From NCBI GenBank assembly GCA_963678315.1, contig OY782781.1:1248001-1312000 (forward strand): DNA of 64,000 bases. Reading direction: 5' to 3'. Below, one piece after another: positions 681-37,993 of this stretch (its first letter is position 1; every line of letters begins with the position of its first letter). The notes beneath the pieces were generated by a model that was not told where the DNA came from, made no database searches, and saw nothing but the letters and a program-made list of their open reading frames with translations. The DNA is from Candidatus Cloacimonadales bacterium. Lineage in GTDB: Bacteria; Cloacimonadota; Cloacimonadia; Cloacimonadales; JAFGVF01. Position numbers and translations under genes: made by a program.

Positions 681-1214
681 ATGAAAACTAGAAATATTGT
701 ATTAATTGCAATGATAGCTATACTTTTATCTATGGTATCATTGTACGCTACAGGTCACAGTGGCCATTGTGGAAAATGTGAAGGTCATTCAGAAATTGAA
801 GAAGTTGAAGTAACTGGAAGAGTCACAAAAACCGATACTTGCTTAACCTTAACAGAGCAGGGAAAGGAAACAGTTTTAAAGCTTGTATTCTCTGAAGAAA
901 TGGAAGCAAAGGCAGATTCAATAGACACTCAAAGTATTTATACATTTAAGGGTAAATTATCAAATAGTGGAAAAACTATTTTTGTTAGTCAGTTTAGTGA
1001 GTTAACTCAAACTAAAACAGCAGGCTATCAGGTAATCCCTGAAAAATGTATAGGTTGTCGATTATGTGTGAGAAATTGTCCAGAAAATGCTATCAAAATG
1101 GTAGATGGGAAAGCAGTAATTGACCAAGAAAAATGTGTTGATTGTGGAATTTGTAAAGATGGTAACGGGAAGTTTAAGGGTTGCCCAGTAAAAGCAATTG
1201 AAAAAAGCAAATAA
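681..1214 (+). CDS. Exported 2[4Fe-4S] ferredoxin-like protein with N-terminal His/Cys motif and small beta domain
   Basis: Sec-type signal ending SLYA; HSGHCGKCEGH; CIGCRLCVRNCP and CVDCGIC...GCP cluster motifs; RBS AGGAG. Confidence 0.85.
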   Translation: MKTRNIVLIAMIAILLSMVSLYATGHSGHCGKCEGHSEIEEVEVTGRVTKTDTCLTLTEQGKETVLKLVFSEEMEAKADSIDTQSIYTFKGKLSNSGKTIFVSQFSELTQTKTAGYQVIPEKCIGCRLCVRNCPENAIKMVDGKAVIDQEKCVDCGICKDGNGKFKGCPVKAIEKSK

Positions 1215-1233
1215 GAATTGAAGTGGAGATGTG

Positions 1234-1770
1234 ATGAAAAAAATATTATTTGTTGTGACTATAGTCTTGTCTTTAGTTGTCACTCTTTTTGCAGTTTATC
1301 AGATTAATCCTTCTGATTGTAGAAACTGTGGAAGATGTGTTAGTGCATGTGATGAAGATGCAATTTATTTTGATACTAGTGTTGGAAAATACCAAATTGA
1401 TCCTAACCTATGTGAAGATTGTGGTGATTGTGTTGATAGATGTAGAGATGATGCTATTGAGCAAGTTCCAGTGTCTAATGATGATACAGATGTAGAAATT
1501 GTTACTTTAAGTGTAAATGTTTTTCCTAATCCAACAGCTACAAAAGCTATCTTTAAGGTATTCACTGAAGATAGAAATATGGAAGGAAAACTTTCAATAT
1601 ATAATATGAAGGGTCAAAAAATAAGATCATATAATGTAGATAGTAAGAATAATGTTACTAGTTGGGATTTAACCAATTCGAAAGGAACTAGAGTAGCACC
1701 TGGAAATTATCTCTATAAATTAGAAGCTGGAGATAAAACTATAACCAGAGCTATGACAGTCTTGGATTAA
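1234..1770 (+). CDS. Secreted 2[4Fe-4S] ferredoxin-like protein with C-terminal FlgD-Ig/T9SS type A sorting domain
   Basis: Signal peptide ending TLFA; CRNCGRCVSAC and CEDCGDCVDRC; tail FPNP...IYNMKGQKIR...WDLTNSKG..VAPGNYLYKL. ATG 1234 chosen (GGAG at 1225); alternative GTG 1231. Confidence 0.85.
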   Translation: MKKILFVVTIVLSLVVTLFAVYQINPSDCRNCGRCVSACDEDAIYFDTSVGKYQIDPNLCEDCGDCVDRCRDDAIEQVPVSNDDTDVEIVTLSVNVFPNPTATKAIFKVFTEDRNMEGKLSIYNMKGQKIRSYNVDSKNNVTSWDLTNSKGTRVAPGNYLYKLEAGDKTITRAMTVLD

Positions 1771-1771
1771 T

Positions 1772-2023
1772 ATGAATAAGAAACTGTTATTAATAATTAT
1801 TGTAGCAGTTGCATTTTGTGGGTTTCTCGTTGCTGTAGTAGTGACTGAGAAACCTTTTGTGCAAAAGAGCGATTGTGTTGGATGTGGAGATTGTGTAAAC
1901 GAGTGCCCTGTTGATGCTATTGAAATTGTGCATGGTAAAGCAGTTATTGACCAAGAGAAGTGTATTAACTGTCAGCTATGTGTAAAAAAATGTACTTATA
2001 ACGCTATAAAAGTAGGAAAATAA
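1772..2023 (+). CDS. Small 2[4Fe-4S] ferredoxin-like protein with N-terminal signal/membrane anchor
   Basis: Hydrophobic N-terminus; CVGCGDCVNECP and CINCQLCVKKC. Confidence 0.85.
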   Translation: MNKKLLLIIIVAVAFCGFLVAVVVTEKPFVQKSDCVGCGDCVNECPVDAIEIVHGKAVIDQEKCINCQLCVKKCTYNAIKVGK

Positions 2024-2268
2024 TGAAAAAGATTACTCTAATAGTACTGATTGGCTTGCTTGTTTTTGTGACTATATCTTGTAAGAAACCATCTGATAAA
2101 GAATACCATGTAGATAAATCTTCTTGTACTGCTTGCGGAGAATGTATTGATGCTTGCGATTACGATGCAATTGAATTTGATACAGATGGAAAGGCTGTGA
2201 TTGATCAATCAAAATGCAAAGCTTGTGGAGATTGCATTAAAGTATGTCCTGAAGGAGCAATCTATTAA
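2023..2268 (+). CDS. Lipoprotein 2[4Fe-4S] ferredoxin-like protein
   Basis: Lipobox-like VTISC after a hydrophobic stretch; CTACGECIDAC and CKACGDCIKVCP; TAATG coupling. Confidence 0.85.
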   Translation: MKKITLIVLIGLLVFVTISCKKPSDKEYHVDKSSCTACGECIDACDYDAIEFDTDGKAVIDQSKCKACGDCIKVCPEGAIY

Positions 2269-3479
2269 TGCGTAAAATATTCTTAACCTTGTTTTTACTA
2301 GCAGTCTCGCTGATATGGGCAGGCAACTATTGGAATCAGTCTCAAGTAACTTTAACCCAAGATGAAGATGCTGATTATTGGGGATTTAAGAATAATCATC
2401 TTGCTGAATATTATCTTAATAATCTCTATCTAGAAATAGGTCTTAATACTTTCCTTTCAGAAATCAGTTCTCCGGACTATATTGAAGAGAGAAGTTCTTA
2501 TGTTACTAATGAAATAAAATCTTTTACTATATATAATATTACTTCTAACTCAAGTCTTAAATTAGGCTTTAACAATAATTATTATGATTACAATAAAAGC
2601 ACTACTAATACTTTAGTTGAGGGGATAGGACTACCAAGCCAAACATTAGCTAAGAACTATTCATATCTTGTATATGAAGGGCAATTTAATAATTTGCAGA
2701 TTCTTAGTGGTGTAAGGTATAGAACAAATTATTATGATCATCAAATTGACCTAGGTGGTTTAATAAATACTGCTGAATATCATACTTATGATGAATTCTA
2801 TAAGGATATATATCTTGCCTATAACTTGAGTGAAGAAGTAAGGATTTATTCTGATTTCTATAATAAGACTTTCTATAGCTCAACAAAAGACTTCCTGGAT
2901 CCAAAACGTGAATATGATGTTACTGAATATGGTTTAGGTGTAAATTATACTTCAAAAGATTTCTTTAATGGAAAGCTGGTAGAAGATTTCTATTATGAAA
3001 AAAGATTAGGCGATAATCTACAAGAGTATGAAGAAGATTATTTTGTGAATAGTTTTAGATATGTTCTTGCTTTGCATGATAGATTAAATGCATTCTGTTC
3101 CTACATAAGCCACTTCTCCTATGATTCTGAAGATAAAGAATTTTATAGACTTGCTAATATGGTTAGAATGCAACTTCGCTATAACATATCTTATGATGAT
3201 GGCGATTCTTATATTTTAGCAGGAACTAGACTAAATCCTGAGAATCAATCACGAAGATACTTTGTTGAAGTTAAATATCCATTAATGGATAAGCTCTACT
3301 GTCGAGTAAATGAAACTTACTATTATGAAACATATAATTCTGTTTCAACAGCCCTTGAATACTACCTTACATCTGCAAGCCATATATATGTAGAAAATAA
3401 CTATACAGACTCTCTAGATGATTTTGGCTACTATTCTTATAAAAACCAATTCTTACTTGGTGCTAGGATGTATTTCTAA
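2268..3479 (+). CDS. Putative outer-membrane beta-barrel protein
   Basis: Signal peptide ending IWA; Tyr/Asn-rich alternating strands; C-terminal BAM-like signature LLGARMYF; TAATG-coupled on both sides. Confidence 0.7.
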   Translation: MRKIFLTLFLLAVSLIWAGNYWNQSQVTLTQDEDADYWGFKNNHLAEYYLNNLYLEIGLNTFLSEISSPDYIEERSSYVTNEIKSFTIYNITSNSSLKLGFNNNYYDYNKSTTNTLVEGIGLPSQTLAKNYSYLVYEGQFNNLQILSGVRYRTNYYDHQIDLGGLINTAEYHTYDEFYKDIYLAYNLSEEVRIYSDFYNKTFYSSTKDFLDPKREYDVTEYGLGVNYTSKDFFNGKLVEDFYYEKRLGDNLQEYEEDYFVNSFRYVLALHDRLNAFCSYISHFSYDSEDKEFYRLANMVRMQLRYNISYDDGDSYILAGTRLNPENQSRRYFVEVKYPLMDKLYCRVNETYYYETYNSVSTALEYYLTSASHIYVENNYTDSLDDFGYYSYKNQFLLGARMYF

Positions 3480-4465
3480 TGCTTAAAACACTTATTGAAG
3501 GATTTACTTTAGGTTTATCCACAGGCACACTTTGCCTTGTTTCCTGCACACCAATTTACCTACCTTATCTTGTATCGGAAGATAGATCCTTTGCAAAGAA
3601 TATTTGGAAGGTTATGGAAATATCTCTAGGACGTTTCTTTTCCTATATAGTCTTTGGTTTAATGGCTGGTTGGTTAGGAAGCAACATTGGAACAATTAAT
3701 CGGGATTTGTTTACTGGTATTGCTTACATCCTCTTATCAATATTCTTAGTAATGAGCGTTCTTAGGACCAAAAAGAAAGGAAAAGGATGCCATGTTCCTA
3801 AAATGCTAAAAGTTACTTCTTCTGCCTTTTTGCTAGGTGTATTTACAGGAATAAACTTCTGTCCTTCTTTCTTGATAGCTCTTTCAAAAGCAGTTGATTT
3901 AGCAGGTCCAATAAGTGGAGCTTTATTGTTTATGGGCTTCTTTTTGGGGACATCTATATTTTTAATACCTTTAGCCTTTTCGGGTTTCCTTGCTCAAATT
4001 AAGAAACTCAAGCTTGTAGCTCAAATTGCTTCTATTGCCATAGCTGTCTGGTTTATATATTCTGGTGCTACAAAAGTGTATGATTATATTAAAGAATCCA
4101 ACCAAGAATATTATATTGTTGAAGCAACATCAGCTGAATATTCTATGGTGTTGATTTCTAGTCAGGATACTGGGGCAAACTTCTTGACTTTGACTGATTC
4201 CCTTTTCTCCTTCAAGAAAGATCAGTTCACTCTAATCAATGATTCAATGATAGAAGCATCTGAATTAGAAGAATTCAATGATAATACTATTTTGCTTATT
4301 GAAAAGAAACTGATTACAGAAGCTAACCATGAAGCCTTGCAAAAGTATCATCATTTTATTATCACTAAAGATATACCAGCGGAAAATATCTTAGCCTTTC
4401 TTAGAAATACTAAAATGAAATTGAAACAAGATGCTCATATACATTTTTCTTTAGAAAGTAAATAA
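3479..4465 (+). CDS. DsbD_2/CcdA-like (TauE/SafE-annotated) multi-pass membrane protein with soluble C-terminal domain
   Basis: GLSTGTLCLVSCTP in TM1, GRFFSY motif, GINFCP in the second half, about 6 TM segments. Confidence 0.75.
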   Translation: MLKTLIEGFTLGLSTGTLCLVSCTPIYLPYLVSEDRSFAKNIWKVMEISLGRFFSYIVFGLMAGWLGSNIGTINRDLFTGIAYILLSIFLVMSVLRTKKKGKGCHVPKMLKVTSSAFLLGVFTGINFCPSFLIALSKAVDLAGPISGALLFMGFFLGTSIFLIPLAFSGFLAQIKKLKLVAQIASIAIAVWFIYSGATKVYDYIKESNQEYYIVEATSAEYSMVLISSQDTGANFLTLTDSLFSFKKDQFTLINDSMIEASELEEFNDNTILLIEKKLITEANHEALQKYHHFIITKDIPAENILAFLRNTKMKLKQDAHIHFSLESK

Positions 4466-4487
4466 ACTATTAAGTAAAAAAACACTT

Positions 4488-4518
4488 AAGAGTCTTGATA
4501 AGTCAAGACTCTTTTCTT
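4488..4518 (+). terminator. Intrinsic terminator of the Fe-S operon
   Basis: AAGAGTCTTGA-TAAG-TCAAGACTCTT followed by TTCTT. Confidence 0.7.
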
Positions 4519-4705
4519 GTTTGCAAAATAAAAGGATAAAGCTTTTTACATTTAGAATCCTAATAAGCACAGTGACTTTTTAAGTTCTAAAACATTATTT
4601 AGGATAATCTTAGCTTTTGGAATAAAAATCCCATCGCATAAATATGATTTAGGTTGAATTTACAATCTATTAGGATGTTTAATTTTGAAAACATGTGAGG
4701 TGTTT

Positions 4706-7700
4706 ATGCAAAAAAAAGTAAGCTTATTGTTTTGGTTTATAAGCATGTTTATGGTACTTTTACCAACTTTTTCCTATGGGCAATTTACTCTTGAGAGTGA
4801 TACTGAAGATCAAACAATTATTGTATTTAATCTGCCTGATTATAATATAATACAAGCAAATCATGTTAATAAAGGTTACAAAGTAATTGAAACTAGTAAA
4901 CATAATTACAGATTTGATGAAGGTTTACCTAACTTACCATTTTACAATACTACAATCCAAATCCCAGATTTGGGAGATGCTACATTTGACTATTCGATAT
5001 TAGAATCAGAAACTATTGAAAATACAGCTATTTTACCTTATTTTGAAGAAGTACCGGTTCTAGCAAATTCTACAGTAAAACAAGAAGAAAATAACCAATG
5101 GTATCCGGAAGATGAGGTGTTAATAGGCGAGCCAGCAATAATGAGAAACAAGAGATTAATCAATATAATGATTAACTCTTTTCGATACAATAACAATAAA
5201 CAAGAACTTCAAGTTCTTAAAAAAGTTAAAATAATAATCAATTATAATCGCAGTAGAACAGGAGTTAATCAGCTAATTTTTAATAATGTGGGCTCTTCTA
5301 ATGAATTCGAGGATGTTTTTAGAGCTAACATTCTTAACTATGAAAATCATGATAATAGGTCTGAATTTCAAAACCCTTCTATCCTGTATATATATAATTC
5401 TGTTTTACATGAAGGTTTTCTATCTTCCTTGAATGAGCTTGTTGAATGGAGAAGAGAGTTGGGATGGAAGGTTAGAGTTTTTAATTGTATGAATTTAACT
5501 AAAGAAGAGATTAAAGCGTATATTCAAGAGTGTTATTATTCGGATATAAATCCCATTACACATGTTACTATATTTGGCGATAATGGTATTCCATCATATT
5601 TTGAAGATATTGAGAGGGAAGATCCAACCTATGTTAATAGTGATCATCCTTATACATTGCTTTCTGGGAATGATTATCTTTCAGATATCTTTCTAAGTAG
5701 GATGTATGTAGATGATGATTATAAGGCTGCTGTTTTTGTAAATAAAATTATTAGTTATGAGAAGCAGGATATAGTAACAAATACTGATTGGTTTAATAAG
5801 AATATATTAGTAAGTGCTATTAATCAGGGTGTAGATGGTACGGTTATTTCAAGTGTTTTTACAAACCAATACGTGAATGAGATAATGTTAAGCTATAATC
5901 CTGCTTATGAGAATTCTGTTTATGATTATAGTTTGTCTACAAGTAACGTTATGGATGATATCAATGATGGCTGTCTTTTTTTTAATTATAGAGGAGATGA
6001 AACTATTTTGAATTTACACAACTACCTGGGCAACCAACTGGCAAACTATAACAAGTTACCAATTTTAGTGTTGTATACAGATAGCAGTCTGACATATTCT
6101 AACCGCTTTGGCAATTTAATGACAGTAATTGGGACTCCTGATACTCAATTAGGATCACCAGCTGTTTTTGGAATGGATACAGATGATAGTCATACAGCCT
6201 ACAATAATATTTTATCAGCTTCTACAATGGAATATTTCTTTGTAAATGATGGATGGTATTGTTCTAGTGCATTAAACAACGCTAAGTTGAGATTATGGCA
6301 AACTTATAATATACATAATCCTCAAGTCGCTGATTTACAAATGAAAGCTGCTGCACTCAATGGTGATGCTGCTATGAAAGTTTGGAAAGGTGTTCCCAAA
6401 GATATGGATGTATCATGTGATGATATTATTTTAGTAGGAAGTGACCAGTTTGAAGTTAGTGTAATGGAAGGTAACCAAGCTTTAAAAGATGTATGGGCAA
6501 CAATAAAGATTGGTGATGAGACCTACTCAACTTATACAGATTCTCGAGGTATTGCTATGATAGAATTTGCTATGGAAAGTGGGGAGGATGTTCTCTTAAC
6601 TCTATCTAAAGAGGGTTATAGAACACAACAAATGCCTTTATCTATTGAGGAAATTGAAGAAAGTATTATCATTGAAAATACTTCCTTATACTCCAATAAT
6701 CAAGAGTGTGATTTTTTATTAGCTCAATCTAGCTATGACTTAGAGTTGGAACTAAAAAATACAGGAACAGTCTTACTCCAAGATGTAGAGGTTACAATTA
6801 CCTGTGATTCTGAGGATATTAATTTTGATGCTGGTCAATTAAACTTTGGTGACTTAGCTTGTGGCGAAACTGGTCTAGGGAATTTCTCTTTCTCGGTGTT
6901 CTCTATTAATAACGATAAAGCTATAAAGTTTGATATTCTAATTGAATCTGGAGACAGGTCGTGGAATAAATTTATCTATTTTGATACTCAGACTCCAATT
7001 ATTGAGATTGATCCACAATTTGTAACTAATAGCTATAATTTTTTTCATGGGATAGTTGATTTCAGGATAGTTAATAACGGTAATCAAGCTCTAAATAATG
7101 GATTAGCTACTTTAACTACTAGTAATGGAGCTTTTACCATTACAGATAGCTCTTTTGAATTTAATGCGTTAGACATTGATAGTACTTTGACTCTAAACTA
7201 CTCCATTTCTTCAATAGGAAATATTTATTTGGGTACAATTGTACCTTTTGAGTTAGAGATAGAAGGGGATGGATATCATACAGTTTTACAGACGAATGCA
7301 TCTTACGCTTATCCTAGCCAAACTCAACCTACTGGTCCTGATCCCTATGGATATGTTATATATGATTCTTATGATACAAATTATGAGGAATGCCCAAACT
7401 ATGAATGGATTGATAGTTCTGAAATTGATAATGGTACTTATTTTGAGCTTGATTTTGACTATTCTACTCCTGAAGAAAACACAGTTCAATGCATAGAAAT
7501 GCCTTTTACCTTTAGTTTTTATGGGGTAGAATATGATTCTATATCTGTGTGTGCAAATGGATGGTTATCTTTTGGATATACCGAGCAAGCAAGCTTCAGA
7601 AATTGGAGTGTTCCTGGTCCTTTAGGTCCATCTCCTATGCTTGCTGTCTTTTGGGATGACCTTGAAATGGAAGAGTCTTCAAGTTGCAATTATGTTTATG

Positions 7701-8869
7701 ATATTGATAATCATTGTGTTATTATAACATGGCAAGACGTTGAAATATACAATAATGTTGCTCTTATTACTTTTCAAGCTATATTATATGACCCTGATTA
7801 TTATGATACCTCAACTAATGATGGACCGATTAAATTACAGTATCAAGATATATGGATTTTTGAAGTTAATCAACATAGTGGGGGGAATTATGTAACGGTT
7901 GGAACAGAAGATCATACTAGCCAAGTTGGATTAGAATACACTTTTAATAATCAATATCCTGTTACAGCACATCAATTAGAGGATAATTTCGCCCTTTACA
8001 TAACTACAGAAACTGAACAAAAAGCTCCTATAGCCATAGCAGAAATAAGTGATATATATATTGATGAAGATTCTGAATTCTCTGGATTAAATACAATCAA
8101 TTTGTTTAGAGACCCTAATAATGATGACTTTGAGATTTTCCTTGCAAATACAGAACATTTTACTATGACTATTAATGAAGCAAATATTGCTACTATTAGC
8201 CCAACAGAAGACTGGTATGGTGTTGAAGAAGTCACTCTATGTGCTCAAGATGATTTTAATCCTGATTGCGGAGAAATATCTTTTACTATGAATGTAAATC
8301 CTATCAATGATAGGCCTGTTTTACTCAATTCTTACCCTGAAGAAAGTGACTTGATAAGTGAGGTTGATTTCTTTGGATTTGGAGTTGATGTATATGACCC
8401 AGATAATGATATTGACTATACATGGAAGATAAATGGCACGATTATTGAGGGCGAGACAACTGATACATTGTACTACTATTTTGAAGAATTGGGTATCTAT
8501 AATATTAAATGTTATGCTACAGATGGTATGGTTACTATAATGACTGATTGGAATATTACTGTTACGACTGATAATGAAGTAGAATATGCTTTAGTTAACT
8601 CTCTATCCCAGAATATTCCTAATCCATTCAATCCTTCTACTGCTATAAATTTCTCTATTAAGAATAGTAGTAAAGTATCATTAATCATTTACAACATAAA
8701 AGGTCAAAAGGTTAAAACTCTCGTTTCTGATAGATTAGAAAAGGGAAATCATACTGTTGTTTGGAAGGGTAATGATGATAATAATCAAAAGGTTTCATCA
8801 GGTATTTACTTCTATAGATTAATCACTGATGAATTCCAATCTACAAGAAAGGCTATTATGCTGAAATAG
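4706..8869 (+). CDS. Gingipain-like C25 family protein (propeptide, C25 domain, Ig-like domains, T9SS/FlgD sorting domain), probably catalytically degenerate
   Basis: GLPNLP propeptide; WRRELGW, SDHPYTLLSGNDYLSDIFLSR, FFNYRG, NGDAAMKVW; C-terminal QNIPNPFNP...IYNIKGQKV...SSGIYFY. ATG 4706 follows GAGG. Confidence 0.8.
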   Translation: MQKKVSLLFWFISMFMVLLPTFSYGQFTLESDTEDQTIIVFNLPDYNIIQANHVNKGYKVIETSKHNYRFDEGLPNLPFYNTTIQIPDLGDATFDYSILESETIENTAILPYFEEVPVLANSTVKQEENNQWYPEDEVLIGEPAIMRNKRLINIMINSFRYNNNKQELQVLKKVKIIINYNRSRTGVNQLIFNNVGSSNEFEDVFRANILNYENHDNRSEFQNPSILYIYNSVLHEGFLSSLNELVEWRRELGWKVRVFNCMNLTKEEIKAYIQECYYSDINPITHVTIFGDNGIPSYFEDIEREDPTYVNSDHPYTLLSGNDYLSDIFLSRMYVDDDYKAAVFVNKIISYEKQDIVTNTDWFNKNILVSAINQGVDGTVISSVFTNQYVNEIMLSYNPAYENSVYDYSLSTSNVMDDINDGCLFFNYRGDETILNLHNYLGNQLANYNKLPILVLYTDSSLTYSNRFGNLMTVIGTPDTQLGSPAVFGMDTDDSHTAYNNILSASTMEYFFVNDGWYCSSALNNAKLRLWQTYNIHNPQVADLQMKAAALNGDAAMKVWKGVPKDMDVSCDDIILVGSDQFEVSVMEGNQALKDVWATIKIGDETYSTYTDSRGIAMIEFAMESGEDVLLTLSKEGYRTQQMPLSIEEIEESIIIENTSLYSNNQECDFLLAQSSYDLELELKNTGTVLLQDVEVTITCDSEDINFDAGQLNFGDLACGETGLGNFSFSVFSINNDKAIKFDILIESGDRSWNKFIYFDTQTPIIEIDPQFVTNSYNFFHGIVDFRIVNNGNQALNNGLATLTTSNGAFTITDSSFEFNALDIDSTLTLNYSISSIGNIYLGTIVPFELEIEGDGYHTVLQTNASYAYPSQTQPTGPDPYGYVIYDSYDTNYEECPNYEWIDSSEIDNGTYFELDFDYSTPEENTVQCIEMPFTFSFYGVEYDSISVCANGWLSFGYTEQASFRNWSVPGPLGPSPMLAVFWDDLEMEESSSCNYVYDIDNHCVIITWQDVEIYNNVALITFQAILYDPDYYDTSTNDGPIKLQYQDIWIFEVNQHSGGNYVTVGTEDHTSQVGLEYTFNNQYPVTAHQLEDNFALYITTETEQKAPIAIAEISDIYIDEDSEFSGLNTINLFRDPNNDDFEIFLANTEHFTMTINEANIATISPTEDWYGVEEVTLCAQDDFNPDCGEISFTMNVNPINDRPVLLNSYPEESDLISEVDFFGFGVDVYDPDNDIDYTWKINGTIIEGETTDTLYYYFEELGIYNIKCYATDGMVTIMTDWNITVTTDNEVEYALVNSLSQNIPNPFNPSTAINFSIKNSSKVSLIIYNIKGQKVKTLVSDRLEKGNHTVVWKGNDDNNQKVSSGIYFYRLITDEFQSTRKAIMLK

Positions 8870-17863: not shown

Positions 17864-18421
17864 AATATTCTCCCATTAGTTATTATTTAACTAAATAGTA
17901 TTTTGTTGTCAAGTAATTATGAAATACTATTATATCTTTATTATTGTGGATGTTTTTTACATAAAGTAAAGTAAGAAAAAGATCATTTACATATAACATT
18001 ACGAGTTAACTAAAAAAAATTATCAAAATATTTTTGATTTAAATGAAACTGCTCTCGTAAACCTTGCATTAAAGAGATGGAATAATCTAGATGGGATTCC
18101 CACAGAATATATTATAGACTCTAAATTAGCTCAAAAGAAATACAAAAAATCAAAAGATCAGTTAAAGTCTTTCTTAAAAAGAGAATATTAAATTGATTAA
18201 TAACTCGTTAGTATCTAATTTTAAATAAATCAAGAGTTATAAGCATATACATTATTGTTCCACTTTTCTTAATATATTTTGTGTATTAATATAATAATTT
18301 TTATTGAGTTCCTAGATAACAAGAAAGAATATACATAGTCTGATTTAATAAAAACCTTGACAACTGTATTTTATTTAGTAATTTTAGCATAAAAATGTAA
18401 ATATTGAATATAGAGGTGAGT

Positions 18422-19771
18422 ATGATTATTGATTTAACAATGGAGAATGTTTTTTCAATAGGTAAAGAACAGAAATTCAGTTTTGAAGCATATGAACCAG
18501 CTGATAATGGTTATGAAGAACATTATATCTGTAAAATACCCAAAAGAGGAGAATATAAAAAAGAGGAAGATAGAAATTACAGATTGTTAAAAGTAGCACT
18601 ATTATTAGGAGCTAATGCTTCAGGAAAATCTAACATACTAAAATCATTTGATTTATTAAATGAAATCATGCTCAAGACAAGAAATAGAAATGAGAAATTC
18701 AATTATGAACCATTTCTTTTAAATCCTAAGATGGAAGAAGTAGCTTCTAAATTATGTTTGAACTTTTTGCTAGAAGATGATGATGGACAATACTCACGGT
18801 ATAAATATCTTATTGAGTTCACGAAAAATGAGATCTTACGAGAGCGCTTAGATAAATATCTATCAAGTCAACCTTCACTAGTATTTGAACGAGTAAGTGA
18901 TGAGGATAATGCGCGAGGTTTTAGGGTTGAGTATGGCAAAAAATTTAAGCCAAATCAGATTGAGACAATGACTATTGAAGCTAACACTCTTCCCAATAAT
19001 TCAATAATATCGATTTTTAATAAAAGCAATCCCTTATTTAATGAGTTAAAAAAAGTATATGGTTGGGGTAAAAAATCTTTTACAATGATAATAGCACCTA
19101 ATACTAATACAACCAGATATACAAATAGATTATTGGCAAGTGAAAGAAAACTAAGAGATTTAGGGAAATCTGTTTTAATTAATGCTGATTTTAACATCTC
19201 AAATATTGATATTGATGTACAAGAGATAGAATTAAATGATAAAGAAAAAAAATTACTAAAAACACTATCTGAAAAAGCTGAAGAAAATATATCTATTGAT
19301 GATTTAAAGAGAAGGTTTTATGACTTGAAACTGACTCATAAAGTACAGATTGATGGTGAGGAAGTTGAAAGAGAATTTGAGGAAGACTTAGAGTCTTTGG
19401 GTACAATGAAATTTTATAGTTTACTGGGTCCATATTTTTCTGCATTTAAGATAAATAGATTGATGATGATTGATGAAATTGAAACGTCACTTCATTGGGA
19501 ACTTCAAAAGAGTTTAATAACTTTATTTCTGATTAATTCAAAAAAGTCTCAACTTATATTTGCAACTCACAATCCTCTTTATTTAATGTGGGATATTATT
19601 AGAGCTGATTCTATCTATTTCACAGAAAAAAAAGATAATGGTGAGACTGATTTATACTCCTTAGTAGATTTTAATAATATAAATAGAGAAAATATATTCA
19701 AGAAGTACTTAATTGGCAATTATGGAGCTGTTCCTAATATAAATGAATATGACTTAGATTTAAAATTGTAG
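18422..19771 (+). CDS. RloA-like/AAA_21 ABC-type ATPase
   Basis: Walker A GANASGKS, ESLGT signature, Walker B MMIDEIETSLH, QLIFATH, C-terminal YLIGNYGAVP; ATG 18422 follows GAGG. Confidence 0.85.
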   Translation: MIIDLTMENVFSIGKEQKFSFEAYEPADNGYEEHYICKIPKRGEYKKEEDRNYRLLKVALLLGANASGKSNILKSFDLLNEIMLKTRNRNEKFNYEPFLLNPKMEEVASKLCLNFLLEDDDGQYSRYKYLIEFTKNEILRERLDKYLSSQPSLVFERVSDEDNARGFRVEYGKKFKPNQIETMTIEANTLPNNSIISIFNKSNPLFNELKKVYGWGKKSFTMIIAPNTNTTRYTNRLLASERKLRDLGKSVLINADFNISNIDIDVQEIELNDKEKKLLKTLSEKAEENISIDDLKRRFYDLKLTHKVQIDGEEVEREFEEDLESLGTMKFYSLLGPYFSAFKINRLMMIDEIETSLHWELQKSLITLFLINSKKSQLIFATHNPLYLMWDIIRADSIYFTEKKDNGETDLYSLVDFNNINRENIFKKYLIGNYGAVPNINEYDLDLKL

Positions 19772-19778
19772 GTATTAT

Positions 19779-20465
19779 ATGGGCAGAAATAGGATAAAAA
19801 GAGCTGAACGTAAGGGAAAATCCAAAAAAAATAAGTCCTTTCAAAATAGTGAATTTGATGGAAAAGGAGCAAGGAAGGATAGGCATCAAATAATCATATT
19901 TTGTGAAGGTCCAACAGAGCAAGAGTATTTTAAACAATTGAAAGAATATGAAGATCTTTGTAATATATACATTGAACCAGATATAAAAGCTGGATCTGAT
20001 TGGGAAAAGATATTTAATAGACTTAATAACTCATATATAGATGATGTATCATGTAGTTTCTATTGTGTCCTAGATTTAGACCAGCAAATTAATCAAGATA
20101 AAATGCCTGAATACTTAACTAAAAAAGGTAAACTACCGATACCCATAGAAAATGTAATTGAAACTTATATGTGCTTTGAAACATGGATTTTAATGCATTA
20201 TAAAGATAATCCTAAATCGGGAACATACTGTAGAACATCAGTAGATGAATTAAAAAAAATTGAAGGGTTTGGCAACTATATAAAAGGTGATAAATTTAAC
20301 AGTATATACTCTATTTTAAAAGATAATCAAAAAAAAGCATGTACCAATGCTGAACGTTTAGAACTTAAAAGAAATAAAGACATAAAAAAAGGGATTTATA
20401 AAGAGAAAGAGTGTCGTTTAGTTTATTCAAGTATGTGGAGATTAATTAAGGAGTTGTTAAAATAA
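19779..20465 (+). CDS. RloB family (AbiLii-like, TOPRIM-like) protein
   Basis: IFCEGPTEQEYF, CVLDLD and CFETWILMHY motifs; directly downstream of the ATPase. Confidence 0.85.
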   Translation: MGRNRIKRAERKGKSKKNKSFQNSEFDGKGARKDRHQIIIFCEGPTEQEYFKQLKEYEDLCNIYIEPDIKAGSDWEKIFNRLNNSYIDDVSCSFYCVLDLDQQINQDKMPEYLTKKGKLPIPIENVIETYMCFETWILMHYKDNPKSGTYCRTSVDELKKIEGFGNYIKGDKFNSIYSILKDNQKKACTNAERLELKRNKDIKKGIYKEKECRLVYSSMWRLIKELLK

Positions 20466-30353: not shown

Positions 30354-30622
30354 TATTTAGGTAAGATTTAAAAAAACAGAGGATACGTATGGGGGTACGT
30401 GTCAAATTTTAGGCTAGAAAACTGTGTTGTAGAAGAAGGTTGAAAAGACTAAGTTTTTTAGTTCAAGATTTTTCTCATTTAGTGTTTATTAAATAACGTC
30501 CTTTTCAAATTCCTACTTGTTAAAATCCCTTGACTTTTTTAATAAAGTATGTTTTTTAGATAAAATGCAAAATTATGGGTAAAATCATGTAGAAGATGAT
30601 GAATATAAAGGATAAGAAACTA

Positions 30623-31678
30623 ATGAGGATAGTACATATTGTTGGAGCAAGACCGCAGTTTATAAAGCTTGCCCCGCTTTATAAAGAAATTAAGAAAGCT
30701 CAGTTAGAGCAGATAATAATACATACTGGTCAACATTATGATGATAAAATGTCTAAAGTCTTTTTTGAAGATTTGAAGATAGCTAAGGCTGATGTGAATC
30801 TATCCATTAATGGTGGTTCTCATGCTTATCAAACAGCAGAAATGATGAAAGGTATTGAGAAGGTTTTACTAGAAAATGAGAATATTATTGTTGTTATATA
30901 TGGCGATACGAACTCTACACTAGCAGGAGCAGTTACTGCTGCCAAACTAAACTTACCTATTGTTCATGTAGAAGCTGGATTAAGATCTAATAATCGTGAG
31001 ATGCCGGAAGAAGTTAATAGGATTCTTGCAGATAGGATATCTAATTATTTATTCGCTCCAACTCAAACAGCAGTTGATAATTTGAAGGAAGAAGGTTTGA
31101 CTCATATTACCTATTTTACTGGTGATATCATGACAGATTCTATTAATCAAAACATTATAATTGCTGAAGAAAAGTCTAATATTCTCCAAGACTTAAAGTT
31201 AAACTCTAAAGATTATTATTTATTAACTCTGCACAGACCTTACAATGTTGATAATCCAAAAAAGTTAAATTCTATAATAGAAAAGCTTAATGGGCTTGAT
31301 AAAAAGGTAATTTTCCCAATTCATCCACGAACTAGAAAGATTCTAGATAATAACAAGCTTAACAACTTAGATAATATCTTCTTGATAGAACCATTGGGAT
31401 ATTTAGATTTTCTAGTAATGGAAAAGAATGCTTGTAAGATTATTACAGATTCTGGTGGTATTCAAAAGGAAGCTTGCTTACTAAAAAGACCTTGTATTAC
31501 TTTGAGAACAGAAACAGAGTGGGTCGAGACAGTAGATGCCGGAGTTAATATGCTAGTGACTGAAATAAAAGAAACATTAGTTTCTGAAATAATAAAATTT
31601 AATCCAACATTTGAAAACAAGAACATTTTTGGTAAAGATGTGAGTAAGAAAATGGTCGAAATTATAAAAGGAATTTAG
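30623..31678 (+). CDS. wecB: UDP-N-acetylglucosamine 2-epimerase (non-hydrolysing)
   Basis: VGARPQFIK, HTGQHYD, GDTNSTL, HVEAGLRS, MPEE, TDSGGIQKEA; alternative start 30596. Confidence 0.92.
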   Translation: MRIVHIVGARPQFIKLAPLYKEIKKAQLEQIIIHTGQHYDDKMSKVFFEDLKIAKADVNLSINGGSHAYQTAEMMKGIEKVLLENENIIVVIYGDTNSTLAGAVTAAKLNLPIVHVEAGLRSNNREMPEEVNRILADRISNYLFAPTQTAVDNLKEEGLTHITYFTGDIMTDSINQNIIIAEEKSNILQDLKLNSKDYYLLTLHRPYNVDNPKKLNSIIEKLNGLDKKVIFPIHPRTRKILDNNKLNNLDNIFLIEPLGYLDFLVMEKNACKIITDSGGIQKEACLLKRPCITLRTETEWVETVDAGVNMLVTEIKETLVSEIIKFNPTFENKNIFGKDVSKKMVEIIKGI

Positions 31679-32860
31679 ATGGAACATAAAAGTCTTATAG
31701 ATTACATTGTTTTTATTATTAGAGGAAGGAAGTTTATAATTGCATTCACTTTTATCTTAGCAGTTATAGCAATAGTCTATTCTCTTGTTACACCAGTGTT
31801 TTGGAAGTCATCAACTAAATTCAAGGCTAAGTCATCAAGTAGTGCTTTGAATTTGGATATGTTAGGCAATTTATCTTCAATGATTCCTAGCGGTATAGGA
31901 GATATGTTTGGAGCTGGGAGCGAGTCTCAACAAGATATGCTAAATTACTTAAATTCAAGAAGTTTTTCTGAGCAAGTAATTAAAGAATTTGATCTTATCT
32001 CTTACTTCGAAATTGAGGAAGCTGATTCTTTAGAGGCTATTGACAAAGCTCTCTATAATTTCGGTGACCTAGTTAGCGTTGGAGTTGACCAAAATTCACA
32101 GCTTATATTTATTTCTGCAGAGACAAAAGACAAGCTTCTATCAAAGAACATCTGTACATTCATGAGAGAAGAAATGGTAGAGTTCATTTCTGAAAAGAAA
32201 AAGAAGGAATCAGAAAAAGAGTATTTATTCTTGCAAGGAAGAATGGCAGAATATGAGCAGCAGGCAAGTATTATATCTGATCAACTTTTAGAGTTTCAAA
32301 GAAAGAACAAGATCATTTCATTAGAACCTCAAATACAACAATTGATTGTTTCTTATAGTGATATGGTAGCTAAGAAAATATTACTTGATACTCAAAAAGA
32401 TCAATTAGTAAATTTGTATGGAGCAGATAATCCAACAGTTAGACTACTCATTGATCAAAGCAACTTATTAGACAAAAAGATTACAGAGTTTGAAACAAAA
32501 GATGGTTTAAGTGACAGTGAATACCTCATTGGTTTAAGCTCCTTACCTGAAATCTCAGTTGAATACGCAAATATTTACATTCAATCACAAATACTGGAAA
32601 AAGTTATAACAACTTTCTACCCACTCTTAGAGTCTGCTAAATTTTCTTACCTAAAGGATGCAGAACTAATTGAAGTTATTGATTATGAAAGAATTTCTGG
32701 AATGAAATCAAAACCTAAGAGAGCTATAATAGTTATTGTCGTAACCTTCTTAAGTTGTGTCTTTTCTGTAATTTTATCTATTGTTTGGTATTCTCAAGAT
32801 GAGAAAAATAGACAGAACTTGCTCTGTGAAGTTAAAAAGATTTGGAAGAAGAAATGTTAG
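31679..32860 (+). CDS. Polysaccharide co-polymerase (Wzz/GumC-like)
   Basis: Two terminal TMs flanking a coiled coil; SKPKRAII proline motif. Confidence 0.8.
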   Translation: MEHKSLIDYIVFIIRGRKFIIAFTFILAVIAIVYSLVTPVFWKSSTKFKAKSSSSALNLDMLGNLSSMIPSGIGDMFGAGSESQQDMLNYLNSRSFSEQVIKEFDLISYFEIEEADSLEAIDKALYNFGDLVSVGVDQNSQLIFISAETKDKLLSKNICTFMREEMVEFISEKKKKESEKEYLFLQGRMAEYEQQASIISDQLLEFQRKNKIISLEPQIQQLIVSYSDMVAKKILLDTQKDQLVNLYGADNPTVRLLIDQSNLLDKKITEFETKDGLSDSEYLIGLSSLPEISVEYANIYIQSQILEKVITTFYPLLESAKFSYLKDAELIEVIDYERISGMKSKPKRAIIVIVVTFLSCVFSVILSIVWYSQDEKNRQNLLCEVKKIWKKKC

Positions 32861-33984
32861 AATTAATACTTGATATAAATGATATTATTAAGAAATGTAT
32901 AAAGCACAAATGGCTAATTATTGGTTTCTTTTTATCTTCTTTCACAGTAGGTATCTTATTCTTGATTTTCGGAACAGAGTTATGGACTTCTTCAGCAACT
33001 ATTAAAACTTTTAAAACAGAGACTTTCACAGTTCCTAACAGTGAAACTATATCTTTAAATCTAGATTATTTCCAACTTGATATACTCAATCCTGAGAGGG
33101 AGAATTTACACAGTAGTAAGCTTGTTGATTCAAAGAGATTTGCCTATAAAACTATGGAAAAATTTGATTTAGTAAACTACTTCGAAATTGAAGAAGAGGA
33201 TAGTTTAAAAACTAGAGATTTATGCTTGAAGAAATACTATGAAGATGTATTGACTGCTTCTTATGATGAAGAATCAGAATTAGTGATTATTAGAGCAAAG
33301 ACTAAGGATAGGCAACTTTCCAAAGATATTGTCGATTTCCAAATTGCTGAGCTTAGAAATTACTATTTAAATAATTTCTTCAATTATAAGAGTGAATTAC
33401 TAGATTTCCTTAATGCTAGATTGACTTCTATTGAGTTAAAAAGAAGTCTCTTGCTAACTGAATTAAAGAAAGATGAATACACAAAGAACTCAAACTTTTT
33501 ACAAGAGAAAGTAACTAGTAAGTTAGAACTATATTATAGCCTTTTGCAAAAGAAGATAACTAACGAGATTCAGATAGATATTGCAAAAAAGATGTATGGT
33601 GAGTTAAATCCTGCAACTGAAGAGTTGATAGTTAAAAATCAAGCTATTGATTCTAAACTTAAGGATTTAGAAGAAAAGAGAATGGGGCTTATTTCTGGTT
33701 TTAATGATATACCCAAGAATGCAATTGAACATAAAAAACTAGAGTTTGAACTATCAATCTATGATGATTTATATGGATATGTGAAGAAAACTATTGAGGC
33801 AACTAATATTGATAAATTAAGAGAACAAAAGGTTTTAGAAATAGTTGATGATTCTTATTTAGCAGGTATTAGGACCTCTCCTGATACAAAGATTGTTTTA
33901 AGCCTTTGCCTTATTATTTCTTTGACCCTATCATTCTTGAGCATTGTCTTTATTGAAGATGTTCTACCTAGATTGGAGAAATAA
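32854..33984 (+). CDS. Second polysaccharide co-polymerase-like paralog
   Basis: Same two-TM architecture; FDLVNYFEIEEEDSL matches FDLISYFEIEEADSL in the previous gene. Confidence 0.7.
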   Translation: MLELILDINDIIKKCIKHKWLIIGFFLSSFTVGILFLIFGTELWTSSATIKTFKTETFTVPNSETISLNLDYFQLDILNPERENLHSSKLVDSKRFAYKTMEKFDLVNYFEIEEEDSLKTRDLCLKKYYEDVLTASYDEESELVIIRAKTKDRQLSKDIVDFQIAELRNYYLNNFFNYKSELLDFLNARLTSIELKRSLLLTELKKDEYTKNSNFLQEKVTSKLELYYSLLQKKITNEIQIDIAKKMYGELNPATEELIVKNQAIDSKLKDLEEKRMGLISGFNDIPKNAIEHKKLEFELSIYDDLYGYVKKTIEATNIDKLREQKVLEIVDDSYLAGIRTSPDTKIVLSLCLIISLTLSFLSIVFIEDVLPRLEK

Positions 33985-33989
33985 CAGTA

Positions 33990-35408
33990 ATGTCGTCAAT
34001 GGTTAAATCAAGTCTATGGATATTCTTCTGCTCTTTTTTTATAAGGATATTTAGTTTTATCTCGAATCCCATAATGGCTAGGAATTATCCTAAAGCAGAT
34101 ATAGCCGAGTTTCGTTCTTTACAAGCTTTGATATTATTAGTCTTTACTTTAATTCCAATAGGTTCAAACCTTCTCTATTTAGCTGAGAAGAAAGAGTTTA
34201 GAAGCAAATACTGGAATCAGTTTATCTCATTTTCAGTTATAGGTTCTGTAATTTCTATAATAGTGCTATTGTTTATTTCAGGGGGAATGTATCAGAAAGT
34301 CCCCATGCTGAATCTGATAGTCATATTAATTCCGCTTACATTAATATTAAAAAATATATATACCACTAAACTTACTGAGAAGATTGATTTTAAGAAGATT
34401 TCCTTAGCACAAATGATTCATCATACCCTTAATAATATACTTATAATAGTTGGTGCCTACACTTTAAAATCTATTGAAATATTAATAGCATCACTTATCT
34501 TTACAGAGATCTTAGAGATAGTAGTTTTAGCTGTTTATACAAAGAAATACACGGTAAAACTGAATAATAACAAGCTAATTATATTTGATAGGAAGACTCA
34601 GAATTTTACTTTTTTTGTAGGATTAAGTACTATTATTGTTAACTTTGCTTTGCAACTACCAACCATTTTAGCAGTAAACTTAATGGGGAGTGAGCTAGCT
34701 GTAGAATTTCAAATGCCTCTTATCTTAATAGGTGTTCCTGTTGTAATGATAGTACAAGCAGTTAGTAAAGTATTTTTACCGCTATTCTCAAATAATCCAG
34801 AGAATGAATTTATTCAGCAAAAAATTTTTATTACCCAATATATCTACTGGTTTGTTGGCTTCTCAATAATGTACTTTGTTTGGTGGTTTGCTAAAGACAT
34901 TACTTATTTAGTGATTAACCCTGAGTGGAAGAACTCAATATTAGCCTTAAAATTCTTCTCAATATTTATGTTTATTAATATACTTCAAAACTCTTTATCT
35001 CAAATAGCGCTGATTAAGAATAAACCTAGCGTTCAGTTTTATTACTCTATTTTTCTTTTGATAGGAAGAATTATCTCATTATATATAGGCTTCAAACACT
35101 ATGGGTTTTACGGTTCAGTTATAGCCTTCACTATTACTGATTCAGTAGTTAGATTAGCTAGATTAATAATAGACCTTCATCTTATAGATGTTAAATTAGT
35201 TGACTACTTAAGATATGTTAAGATCCCAATCTTATATTGCATAACATTGATCAGCTTATCGTATCTTCTAGCTAGCATAAATATCAAGGAATATATGTCC
35301 TTTATAATTGCAATCCTTCTTAGTATATTTATTTATGCTTTCATAGATAGAAAGAAATTATCTGAATTATATAAGTCTTTTGTTAAAGGATTTGCTAAAA
35401 ATGGATAA
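33990..35408 (+). CDS. wzx: Wzx-like polysaccharide flippase
   Basis: About 12-14 TM segments, 472 aa, polysaccharide locus context. Confidence 0.75.
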   Translation: MSSMVKSSLWIFFCSFFIRIFSFISNPIMARNYPKADIAEFRSLQALILLVFTLIPIGSNLLYLAEKKEFRSKYWNQFISFSVIGSVISIIVLLFISGGMYQKVPMLNLIVILIPLTLILKNIYTTKLTEKIDFKKISLAQMIHHTLNNILIIVGAYTLKSIEILIASLIFTEILEIVVLAVYTKKYTVKLNNNKLIIFDRKTQNFTFFVGLSTIIVNFALQLPTILAVNLMGSELAVEFQMPLILIGVPVVMIVQAVSKVFLPLFSNNPENEFIQQKIFITQYIYWFVGFSIMYFVWWFAKDITYLVINPEWKNSILALKFFSIFMFINILQNSLSQIALIKNKPSVQFYYSIFLLIGRIISLYIGFKHYGFYGSVIAFTITDSVVRLARLIIDLHLIDVKLVDYLRYVKIPILYCITLISLSYLLASINIKEYMSFIIAILLSIFIYAFIDRKKLSELYKSFVKGFAKNG

Positions 35409-36699
35409 GCTCAAAATATCTACATATACTCATCTTTTTTTGCTATCAACAGGGATAACCTTTATTGCTTGTTTATATCCGATAACTATGTTCTTCTCCT
35501 TAATTGTTATGCTTGTTTCAGCTTTCGTTGTTAAAGGGAAGTTCAAGAGTATCTTTTTAATATATCAGATAACACCATTAATTAATACTTTTTGGATGTA
35601 TTATGCTAAGACTTCAGGGTCAATAAATCGGTATTTCTTAGTATATTTAGTAATCTTATTTTTCATATTAGCTTATGCTGTGATACATAAGAAAATAAAG
35701 CTATTTTTAGGTCGATTTGAGCTATTCTCAATAGTGTTTTTTAGTTACTTAGTTATATCTACTCTTCTTTTCTCAGAATACAAAGATTATGGTTTTGAGA
35801 AGCTAACTTATCTAATGTTTACATGTTATGGCTCATTGATAGTTTATGTCTTTTATAATAGCAAGAAATCTATGGATTATCTTTTGGCCAGTGTTTCAAT
35901 CTTTGCTTTTATTATAACAATAATAGCAATCGTAACACCACTTGACTATCACTTAATTTTTGGTGAATATTTTGAGAAAAGACTAACTACCTTTAAACTT
36001 AATCCAATCTGGATTGCAAGGTATCTTTCCTATGGATTAATAGCAAACATTTACTTGATTATCAAATATAGAAATAAAATTATTCCTATTGTTGTTCTAT
36101 CAATATTATCTGTTTTTGAAGTAATATATTTCTTTAGAGCTGATTCACGAGCGCCAACAATAGCATTGTTAATGGGTATTATGCTATTTGTCTTTTTTCG
36201 ATATAGAAAAAATAAAATAGTTTTGTATTCACTAATTGTTTCTATCTTGGCAATGAGTATTTTTGTCTATCTGAACTTACAATCTTTATCTTCAACAAGG
36301 CTTACTGGTGGAGGAACAGCTAACTCTAGTTCTTATCAAAGAATAATAGCTCAATACCAAGCCTATGAATTATTAAAAGAAAACTATATTTTTGGAGGGG
36401 GGTTTGGCTCTTTTGCTAAATTCTATTTAGAATATCCTCATAATATCTTTTCTGAAATAACAAGTGAAACTGGTTTGATTGGACTAGTTTTATTGCTTAC
36501 AATGTTAGTTACTTCAGCATCAAATGCACTCAAACTTTTAAAGAAGTCAGAGGACTTAATAACAATCACTATGTTGGTACTTCTTGTTATGTCCTTTATA
36601 AATGTCAACTTTAGTGGTCATGTAGGGATAAATCCATATTTTTGGATATTCCTCTCTGCGGTAAACATCTTATTCTTAAAATCGAAAGAGGTAAAATGA
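35401..36699 (+). CDS. O-antigen polymerase/ligase family (Wzy/WaaL)
   Basis: Multi-TM; SRAP, GGGFGSF, YPHNIFSEITSETGLIG motifs. Confidence 0.8.
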   Translation: MDKLKISTYTHLFLLSTGITFIACLYPITMFFSLIVMLVSAFVVKGKFKSIFLIYQITPLINTFWMYYAKTSGSINRYFLVYLVILFFILAYAVIHKKIKLFLGRFELFSIVFFSYLVISTLLFSEYKDYGFEKLTYLMFTCYGSLIVYVFYNSKKSMDYLLASVSIFAFIITIIAIVTPLDYHLIFGEYFEKRLTTFKLNPIWIARYLSYGLIANIYLIIKYRNKIIPIVVLSILSVFEVIYFFRADSRAPTIALLMGIMLFVFFRYRKNKIVLYSLIVSILAMSIFVYLNLQSLSSTRLTGGGTANSSSYQRIIAQYQAYELLKENYIFGGGFGSFAKFYLEYPHNIFSEITSETGLIGLVLLLTMLVTSASNALKLLKKSEDLITITMLVLLVMSFINVNFSGHVGINPYFWIFLSAVNILFLKSKEVK

Positions 36700-37985: not shown

Positions 37986-37993
37986 GAGACGAC

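Follow-up and report, generated by a model that had tools for sequence, protein, structure and literature searches.

Near the start of a 64,000-nucleotide stretch of a Candidatus Cloacimonadales bacterium genome (contig OY782781.1, positions 1,248,001 to 1,312,000; hereafter the window) lies an operon of six genes on the + strand, spanning window positions 681–4465. The four adjacent genes at its front encode ferredoxin-domain proteins with export signals of the Sec, lipoprotein or type IX secretion system (T9SS) kind, and these are followed by genes for an outer-membrane β-barrel (ORF5) and an inner-membrane protein of the DsbD_2 family (ORF6). The textbook view is that Fe-S proteins reach the periplasm only in folded form, via twin-arginine translocation (Tat), and we know of no extracytoplasmic Fe-S assembly in bacteria. 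A genome that has no such folded-protein export and yet encodes tagged ferredoxins next to a barrel suggests an undescribed haem-free route for electrons through the cell envelope. From the anatomy of the locus, all of which it fits, we infer a haem-free "porin–ferredoxin" conduit whose clusters would be inserted after Sec export, and we put the probability of this reading at roughly 0.45, somewhat short of even odds.

The operon and its flanking signals, in window coordinates, are as follows.

626–655, + strand: promoter-like site upstream of ORF1 (TTGACA, 18-nt spacer, AAAAAT, with TG); consensus match only
681–1214, + strand: open reading frame (ORF) 1, 177 amino acids (aa), N-terminus MKTRNIVL
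1231 or 1234–1770, + strand: ORF2, starting with GTG at 1231 or ATG at 1234, 179 or 178 aa, N-terminus (M)MKKILF
1772–2023, + strand: ORF3 (F3 family), 83 aa, N-terminus MNKKLLL
2023–2268, + strand: ORF4 (F4 family), 81 aa, N-terminus MKKITL
2268–3479, + strand: ORF5, the barrel, 403 aa, with signal peptide, 20-strand β-barrel and C-terminal Phe
3479–4465, + strand: ORF6, DsbD_2 family (PF13386), 328 aa, inner-membrane protein with six transmembrane (TM) helices
4488–4513, + strand: terminator-like hairpin (11-bp stem and T-rich tail) that closes the six-gene operon

Stop and start codons overlap by one base (TAATG) at each junction from ORF3 through ORF6. These overlaps, together with the promoter-like site and the terminator hairpin, identify 681–4465 as one operon. 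Promoter-like sites are about as numerous in the region as expected (24 versus 22.7), and hence the site at 626–655 is no more than a match to the consensus.

Each of the four front proteins scores above the Pfam Fer4 gathering cut-off of 21.1 bits (ORF1, 42.1; ORF2, 43.1; ORF3, 56.4; ORF4, 56.5), which bears out the initial annotation of 681–2268 as encoding Fe-S-motif proteins. Two full CxxCxxCxxxC motifs are present in each of ORF2, ORF3 and ORF4. ORF1 has one full motif and a second with a nine-residue insertion ahead of the last Cys-Pro, CxxCxxC(x9)CP. The layout of ORF1 is a Sec-type signal, likely cleaved after ..SLYA, then a middle domain of ~80 aa of unknown fold, and finally a Fer4 dicluster domain, whose type is shared with the ferredoxin partner of the NapH-like protein. 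Its closest solved structure is RnfB (7e-12). In the 10-row alignment of the ORF1 family (A6), six of the eight cluster cysteines are invariant, one is conserved at 90% or more, and one is not listed as conserved.

ORF2 consists of a Sec-type signal, a ferredoxin domain of the 2×[4Fe-4S] type, and a T9SS type A C-terminal sorting domain (TIGR04183, 42.7 bits versus a cut-off of 23; PF18962, 32.2 versus 27). Its homologues (n = 15) are each 178 aa long, and the signal, the eight cysteines and the sorting domain are kept in every row of alignment A1 (15 rows, ORF2 plus 14 homologues). When the A1 profile was used to search related loci, matches were dominated by the T9SS tail (VFPNPT.., IYNIKGQK), and little synteny was gained. 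ORF3 is a signal peptide joined to a 2×[4Fe-4S]-type ferredoxin, with eight cysteines invariant in 28 of 28 rows (alignment A5), and is predicted to be soluble in the periplasm. ORF4 joins a ferredoxin domain of the same type to a lipoprotein signal ending in ..VTIS-C20; the lipobox C20 ([GAS]-C) and the eight cluster cysteines are invariant in 29 of 29 rows (alignment A4). Most rows of A4 and A5 were picked by a script rule (an early Cys, then E/Q-Y/F, and an ..AI[YH] end), and the complementary list, read by eye, contained no F4-like sequence lacking the early Cys. The closest solved relatives of ORF4 are the MvhB and FwdF polyferredoxins, RnfB and clostridial ferredoxin. Strict conservation of the motifs and similarity to MvhB, FwdF, RnfB and clostridial ferredoxins suggest, at the level of sequence, that the exported proteins bind clusters.

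Proteins of this kind are few in the genome, and the pattern seen here goes beyond chance. CxxCxxCxxxC occurs in 28 ORFs, of which six have a signal-like N-terminus by a crude rule that passes 31% of the ~2058 ORFs of at least 100 aa. The six comprise the four operon genes and a pair, 595 kb away, encoding a NapH-like protein and an exported ferredoxin.

The N-termini of ORF1–ORF4 are as the initial annotation described them. One to three Lys/Arg lead into a hydrophobic run of 17–21 residues, RR is absent from all four, and the signals are of the Sec or lipoprotein type. Searches with TatC and TatA profiles, which gave matches in 11 of 14 control genomes, gave none in this genome, a single contig of 2.99 Mb that is 97.9% complete. 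ORF1–ORF4 lack both marks of Tat substrates, the twin-arginine motif (S/T-R-R-x-F-L-K type) and a genomic TatC/TatA, and piggy-backing on a Tat-exported partner, a possibility raised with the first description of these proteins, is excluded here by the absence of the translocase. TatC is missing from most of the phylum as well. It was found in 7 of the 201 Cloacimonadota genomes searched (6 of them over the cut-off); the 10 genomes that belong to the same family have none, and of the 74 in which ORF5 has a homologue, only 1 has it.

The genome encodes the machinery for the other signals. A T9SS translocon gene is present (SprA_N, 93.5 bits, in a 2118-aa ORF), as is LspA (Peptidase_A8, 4.9e-39), and a crude T9SS-tail motif is seen in ~105 ORFs. 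With its N-terminal Sec signal, type A sorting domain and SprA in the genome, ORF2 has the features of T9SS cargo. ORF4, with its invariant lipobox Cys and LspA, has those of a lipoprotein, that is, a substrate of signal peptidase II (SPII). The F4 profile was also compared with representatives of 50%-identity clusters, and of the 150 that matched it best, 45 have signal-like N-termini. A convincing Tat motif was recognized by eye in only four of these 45 (a regular expression had flagged 5 of the 150), and most of the other signal-bearing relatives are proteins of 150–250 aa with a signal and two diferredoxin domains. Sec-type ferredoxins thus appear to be widespread in metagenomes.

Taken together, the signal types, the T9SS tail, the lipobox, the fusion of related ferredoxins to FN3 domains (below), the operon partner and the absence of Tat make export without Tat very probable. 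With no Tat, and with signals of the Sec, lipoprotein and T9SS types, the clusters, if present, must be inserted outside the cytoplasm.

ORF5 matches no Pfam or NCBIfam family. Its model, computed from a 24-row alignment (pLDDT 87.4), is a 20-strand β-barrel with no plug. The best fold matches are the 22-strand barrels of TonB-dependent receptors, which house a plug (TMq ~0.6); the match to MtrB (6r2q_B) has a TMq of 0.46. In the Protein Atlas, ORF5 falls only in generic porin-like clusters.

Across the 201 phylum genomes, a single-sequence search found an ORF5 homologue in 74, and the ORF6 subfamily was found in 83 at E ≤1e-20. Both are present in 45 genomes, the barrel only in 29, the DsbD_2 gene only in 38, and neither in 89. 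The barrel count is an underestimate, because 7 of 12 "DsbD_2 only" genomes that were fetched carry a divergent barrel-sized gene. In these seven, the whole cluster is present (ORF1-like protein, NapH-like protein, large ferredoxin lipoprotein, F3, F4, barrel and DsbD_2 protein); two others have a NapH-like gene beside DsbD_2, with or without an exported polyferredoxin, and three have DsbD_2 alone. Among 30 loci around barrel homologues, a script identified F3 in 26, F4 in 27 and a DsbD_2 protein in 25, with the gene order F3–F4–barrel–DsbD_2. The three loci without F4 are ended by contig ends.

The conserved core across the phylum is two small exported ferredoxins plus the barrel, often accompanied by a NapH-like polyferredoxin and Fer4-FN3-Fer4 lipoproteins. 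In other genera, an ORF1-like and a NapH-like protein open the cluster. The NapH-like protein contains two Fer4_5 domains and one Fer4 (in one homologue encoded within a cluster, Fer4_5 matches at 2.1e-19), and next comes a lipoprotein of 600–1400 aa composed of a Fer4 dicluster, several FN3 domains and a second Fer4 dicluster. These FN3 fusions are strong circumstantial evidence, drawn from sequence, that such ferredoxin domains work outside the cytoplasm. In the family of the present genome, the small T9SS-tagged ORF2 stands in place of the large lipoprotein. The large lipoproteins (L113:6912-8705, L114:4302-6122, L115:4-2478, L118:2878-6036 and others) end in a hydrophobic-aromatic tail (..AVVAY, ..YVIAY, ..WVIAY), which resembles an outer-membrane β-signal or strand-docking motif. 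At one locus (L142 of genome G037, 2408-7178), the NapH-like module is separated from the DsbD_2, barrel and ferredoxin genes by three regulator-sized genes, and the start of one of the three resembles a response-regulator receiver domain.

The present genome encodes its NapH-like protein apart from the operon:

genome positions 1843117–1844475, outside the window, 595 kb away: NapH-like Fer4_5 protein and exported ferredoxin

Here, a polytopic NapH-like protein of 259 aa is directly followed by a 192-aa Sec-signal protein with two ORF1-type ferredoxin domains, and the pair is likely to be the inner-membrane module of the system. Its position also lends weight to an alternative, in which the redox module is periplasmic, with no path across the outer membrane. 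Electrons from the NapH-like protein would be carried by the ferredoxins to a periplasmic or surface reaction, such as the reduction of sulfur, polysulfide, a metal or an organic acceptor, and ORF5 would be a substrate porin. Consistent with this, the pair stands alone and barrel-free in this genome; Fer4_5 (NapH-like) proteins are found in 171 of the 201 genomes, inside the cluster in several genera, and are thus far more widely distributed than the barrel; and loci L136 and L143 contain a NapH-like protein, an exported polyferredoxin and DsbD_2, with no barrel. However, translation of the barrel gene is coupled to that of the ferredoxin genes, ORF5 belongs to no substrate-specific family, one of the ferredoxins (ORF2) is tagged for delivery to the surface by the T9SS, and neither ORF calls nor a Pfam scan revealed a reductase gene in the operon. 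On balance, we think such a module rather unlikely.

In the porin–ferredoxin conduit, Sec would export ORF1–ORF4 as unfolded chains: ORF1 and ORF3 with cleavable signals, ORF4 as a lipoprotein, and ORF2 to be handed to the cell surface by the T9SS. [4Fe-4S] clusters would be inserted once the chains have crossed the membrane, in a periplasm that is anoxic and well supplied with Fe(II) and sulfide, and in a strict anaerobe of sulfidic, Fe(II)-rich habitats such cofactor uptake could be spontaneous. The cysteines would be held reduced by thiol reductant transfer of the DsbD type, as for apocytochrome c after Sec export. We infer, from gene content, a physical complex and a direction and partner of electron flow: electrons would pass from the NapH-like inner-membrane protein to the periplasmic ferredoxins ORF1 and ORF3, and from there, by way of the lipoprotein ORF4 with the plugless barrel ORF5, to the surface ferredoxin ORF2 delivered via the T9SS.

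ORF6 is the only DsbD_2 gene in the genome (PF13386, 71.8 bits versus a cut-off of 24.9). The profile match, the six TM helices, and the presence of Cys near Pro in TM1 and TM4 place it in the DsbD/CcdA superfamily. In its model, the six helices are joined to a Cys-free C-terminal α/β domain, and the positive-inside rule predicts that this domain and the N-terminus are periplasmic. Four cysteines are invariant in an 18-row alignment (A3): C19 and C23 in TM1 (CxxxCxP), C104 in the strongly basic TM3–TM4 loop, and C128 in TM4 (FCP). The sequence cluster of ORF6 has 248 members, mostly from Cloacimonadota.

Comparison of ORF6 with solved structures by sequence gave nothing relevant (the single row, a cyclin at E 0.64, is a chance match), and Foldseek gave no meaningful match (TM ≤0.2). 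VIA-align returned RnfA (8ahx_A; Z 8.2, root-mean-square deviation (rmsd) 5.1, 146 aligned) and NqrE (7xk3_E; Z 8.0, rmsd 5.1, 144 aligned), although a Z of ~8 is too low to indicate anything beyond a generic arrangement of helices. For the C-terminal domain, the resemblance is to halves of LacI or periplasmic-binding folds (Z ~7). Membership in the Rnf-Nqr family was rejected, as hhalign of A3 against the genome's own RnfA/E-type proteins gave a probability of 0.1; the genome has two Rnf-type clusters, amounting to four Rnf-Nqr genes. A role in cytochrome c maturation was also rejected, since the Cytochrom_C_asm (cytochrome c assembly) family was not found in the genome. Only one ORF in the whole genome has two or more CxxCH motifs, and the operon contains no CxxCH runs; on these counts, no haem-based route is apparent.

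The initial annotation had proposed extracytoplasmic Fe-S maturation, with the gene at 3479–4465, now ORF6, as the candidate factor. The first part stands in conditional form, insertion outside the cytoplasm being required if clusters are present, but the gene itself cannot be essential, because the ORF6 subfamily is missing from 29 of the 74 barrel-positive genomes. It was found in 0 of 19 genomes of genus g5 and 0 of 20 of genus g8. In four of five sampled barrel-positive genomes without the subfamily, any DsbD_2 protein is absent; canonical DsbD_TM proteins are present in all five genomes checked, this one included. A dedicated reductant relay is thus a plausible but dispensable role for ORF6. 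Outside the phylum, the A3 profile was not found in the three genomes looked at (one Zixibacteria, one Bacteroidales and one labelled Armatimonadota). Locus L147, from a metagenome-assembled genome (MAG) labelled Armatimonadota (G204), has a gene of the ORF6 subfamily (2.6e-151) that matches no less well than those of Cloacimonadota, and may represent mis-binning or a mislabelled MAG.

A more far-reaching version of the conduit can be formulated, in which [4Fe-4S] clusters are assembled outside the cytoplasm on apoproteins exported by Sec, both in Cloacimonadota and, to judge from the numerous Sec-signal diferredoxins of metagenomes, in many other anaerobes; ORF6 is a dedicated envelope factor, and the ferredoxins are stacked in the barrel. 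The invariant cysteines of ORF6 (C19, C23, C104 and C128), membrane-embedded or juxtamembrane, would relay reductant to the apo-ferredoxins, or would hold or translocate an Fe-S cluster in the manner of RnfA/E and NqrD/E. Loaded ferredoxins stacked in the 20-strand barrel would form a wire made wholly of iron-sulfur centres, leading to the T9SS-displayed surface ferredoxin. If true, syntrophs could in this way pass electrons to other species or to minerals without cytochromes, but we consider this version unlikely.

Several observations weigh against the conduit, even in its simpler form. [4Fe-4S] ferredoxins are oxygen-labile and, to our knowledge, their maturation outside the cytoplasm has never been shown; nor did this analysis identify an extracytoplasmic Fe-S assembly factor. 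The patchy occurrence of ORF6 is a second difficulty. The fold matches of ORF5 are generic for large barrels, and a 20-strand barrel is smaller than MtrB. The signal classes come from inspection, a lipobox regular expression and conservation, rather than from a trained predictor. Finally, some neighbours of the cluster would fit metal handling as well. In genome G031 (locus L122, 8093-10811), the cluster is followed by genes for a Fur-like regulator and FeoB, and in loci L109 and L110 of the sister genus, genes for a Cu-type P-type ATPase and HMA-domain proteins lie upstream of the operon (all named by eye from their N-termini).

These metal-related neighbours also favour an alternative in which the exported eight-Cys proteins are cluster-free in vivo, and either bind or buffer metal or sulfide (Fe, Cu, Zn) or are disulfide-bonded structural proteins. 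ORF6 would then be a metal or thiol transporter, and ORF5 the matching outer-membrane channel. Sec export implies an apo form, the DsbD_2 family also includes putative transporters annotated as TauE/SafE-like, and a His/Cys-rich stretch follows the signal of ORF1, all of which would agree with such a role. However, the CxxCxxCxxxC(P) spacing is strict in three of the families (F3, F4 and ORF2) and almost strict in the fourth (ORF1), and the close similarity of these families to true cluster-binding modules would be hard to explain if they carried no clusters. Association with a NapH-like redox protein likewise points to electron transfer, and we regard cluster-free proteins as unlikely.

Alternatively, holo-proteins might be exported in folded form by an unrecognized Tat-independent route, with no need for extracytoplasmic assembly. 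In favour of this are the cytoplasmic loading that is general for Fe-S proteins and the presence of the cytoplasmic scaffold NifU (NifU_N at 693811). The SufB/D core family was not found in this genome, though it was found in 14 of 14 control genomes. Against a folded route, the signals are of the usual Sec, SPII and T9SS kinds, no candidate translocase was seen in or near the clusters examined, and the T9SS crosses the outer membrane only; such export seems to us highly improbable. Least credible of all is that the hydrophobic N-terminal segments anchor the proteins in the membrane with their ferredoxin domains on the cytoplasmic side, a topology that the initial annotation had allowed for: ORF3-type N-termini could be uncleaved anchors, and the signal classes come from inspection, pattern matching and conservation, but the N-terminal flank of the hydrophobic segment is more positive than the C-terminal flank in all four proteins, in line with the positive-inside rule, and the T9SS sorting domain, the invariant lipobox, the FN3 fusions and the co-operonic outer-membrane barrel all argue against it.

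Other genes in the window lie outside the operon. Upstream, on the – strand, an open-ended ORF of 74 aa without a Pfam match sits at the window edge (2–223), and the 457 nt from it to ORF1 are non-coding. Downstream, ORF7 (4685–8869, + strand) encodes a gingipain-like protein of 1394 aa, with a C25 peptidase and propeptide, Ig-like domains and a T9SS C-terminal sorting domain. ORF7 was considered as an operon member and ruled out by the terminator and a 220-nt gap before it; it forms its own transcription unit, 3′ of the operon terminator. At 18404–20465 (+ strand), an AAA_21 ATPase (455 aa) is followed by an RloB-like protein (228 aa), a pair typical of candidate anti-phage defence systems. 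A polysaccharide cluster of the lipopolysaccharide or O-antigen type occupies 30596–38992 (+ strand) and includes UDP-GlcNAc 2-epimerase, Wzz, a flippase, Wzy_C, glycosyltransferases and a heptosyltransferase.

In a literature search, neither ferredoxins exported by Sec or the T9SS nor this gene cluster turned out to be described. Nor are exported ferredoxins or the cluster mentioned in passages of three papers on Cloacimonadota or digesters (PMC7382037, PMC8542988 and PMC12590816). What stands out is that a phylum almost wholly without Tat keeps Sec-, lipoprotein- and T9SS-tagged ferredoxins beside an outer-membrane barrel of their own. If these proteins are loaded, then Fe-S clusters can form outside the cytoplasm, electrons can pass the Gram-negative envelope without haem, and abundant syntrophic fermenters of anaerobic digesters may trade electrons directly with their partners. 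Direct exchange of this sort would alter the screening of microbes poor in cytochromes for extracellular electron transfer.

Four known systems offer points of comparison. The surface DMSO reductase of Shewanella, DmsAB, also has an Fe-S subunit beyond the outer membrane. DmsAB, however, receives its cofactors in the cytoplasm and is exported by Tat in folded form, and type II secretion then carries it across the outer membrane. The quinol dehydrogenase modules NapGH and NosGH share with the Cloacimonadota system a polytopic NapH-like Fer4_5 (PF12801) protein and an exported polyferredoxin. NapG-type proteins are twin-arginine substrates of Tat, whereas here the signals are of the Sec type and Tat is absent. 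Here, moreover, a lipoprotein ferredoxin, a T9SS ferredoxin and a barrel are added, and no nitrate or N2O reductase gene was found in the cluster loci examined, a statement that covers those loci only, as no genome-wide search for NapA was made.

The proposed conduit would be a ferredoxin-based counterpart of the porin–cytochrome conduits, such as MtrCAB of Shewanella, PioAB/MtoAB, and Pcc of Geobacter. There, too, a large plugless outer-membrane barrel is encoded together with redox proteins, one periplasmic and one a lipoprotein or exposed at the surface. In those conduits the redox modules are multihaem cytochromes; in the Cloacimonadota operon they are predicted [4Fe-4S] ferredoxins, and none is a multihaem protein. 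The barrel has 20 strands here and 26 in MtrB, with no sequence relationship between the two, and the complex here is a proposal drawn from the genes alone.

Finally, cytochrome c maturation by CcdA/DsbD also involves an apo-protein exported via Sec and a 6-TM protein with Cys-Pro motifs in TM1 and TM4. ORF6 differs in that it occurs in a genome without cytochromes c, has four invariant cysteines and a Cys-free predicted periplasmic domain, and belongs to a subfamily that is largely confined to Cloacimonadota and missing from many cluster-bearing genomes. By analogy, its likely role is nonetheless similar, namely keeping cofactor-ligating cysteines reduced outside the cytoplasm. Of the precedents, cytochrome c maturation, with apo-protein export, reduction by DsbD/CcdA and cofactor uptake on the outside, would provide the most economical model for how exported ferredoxins acquire their clusters.

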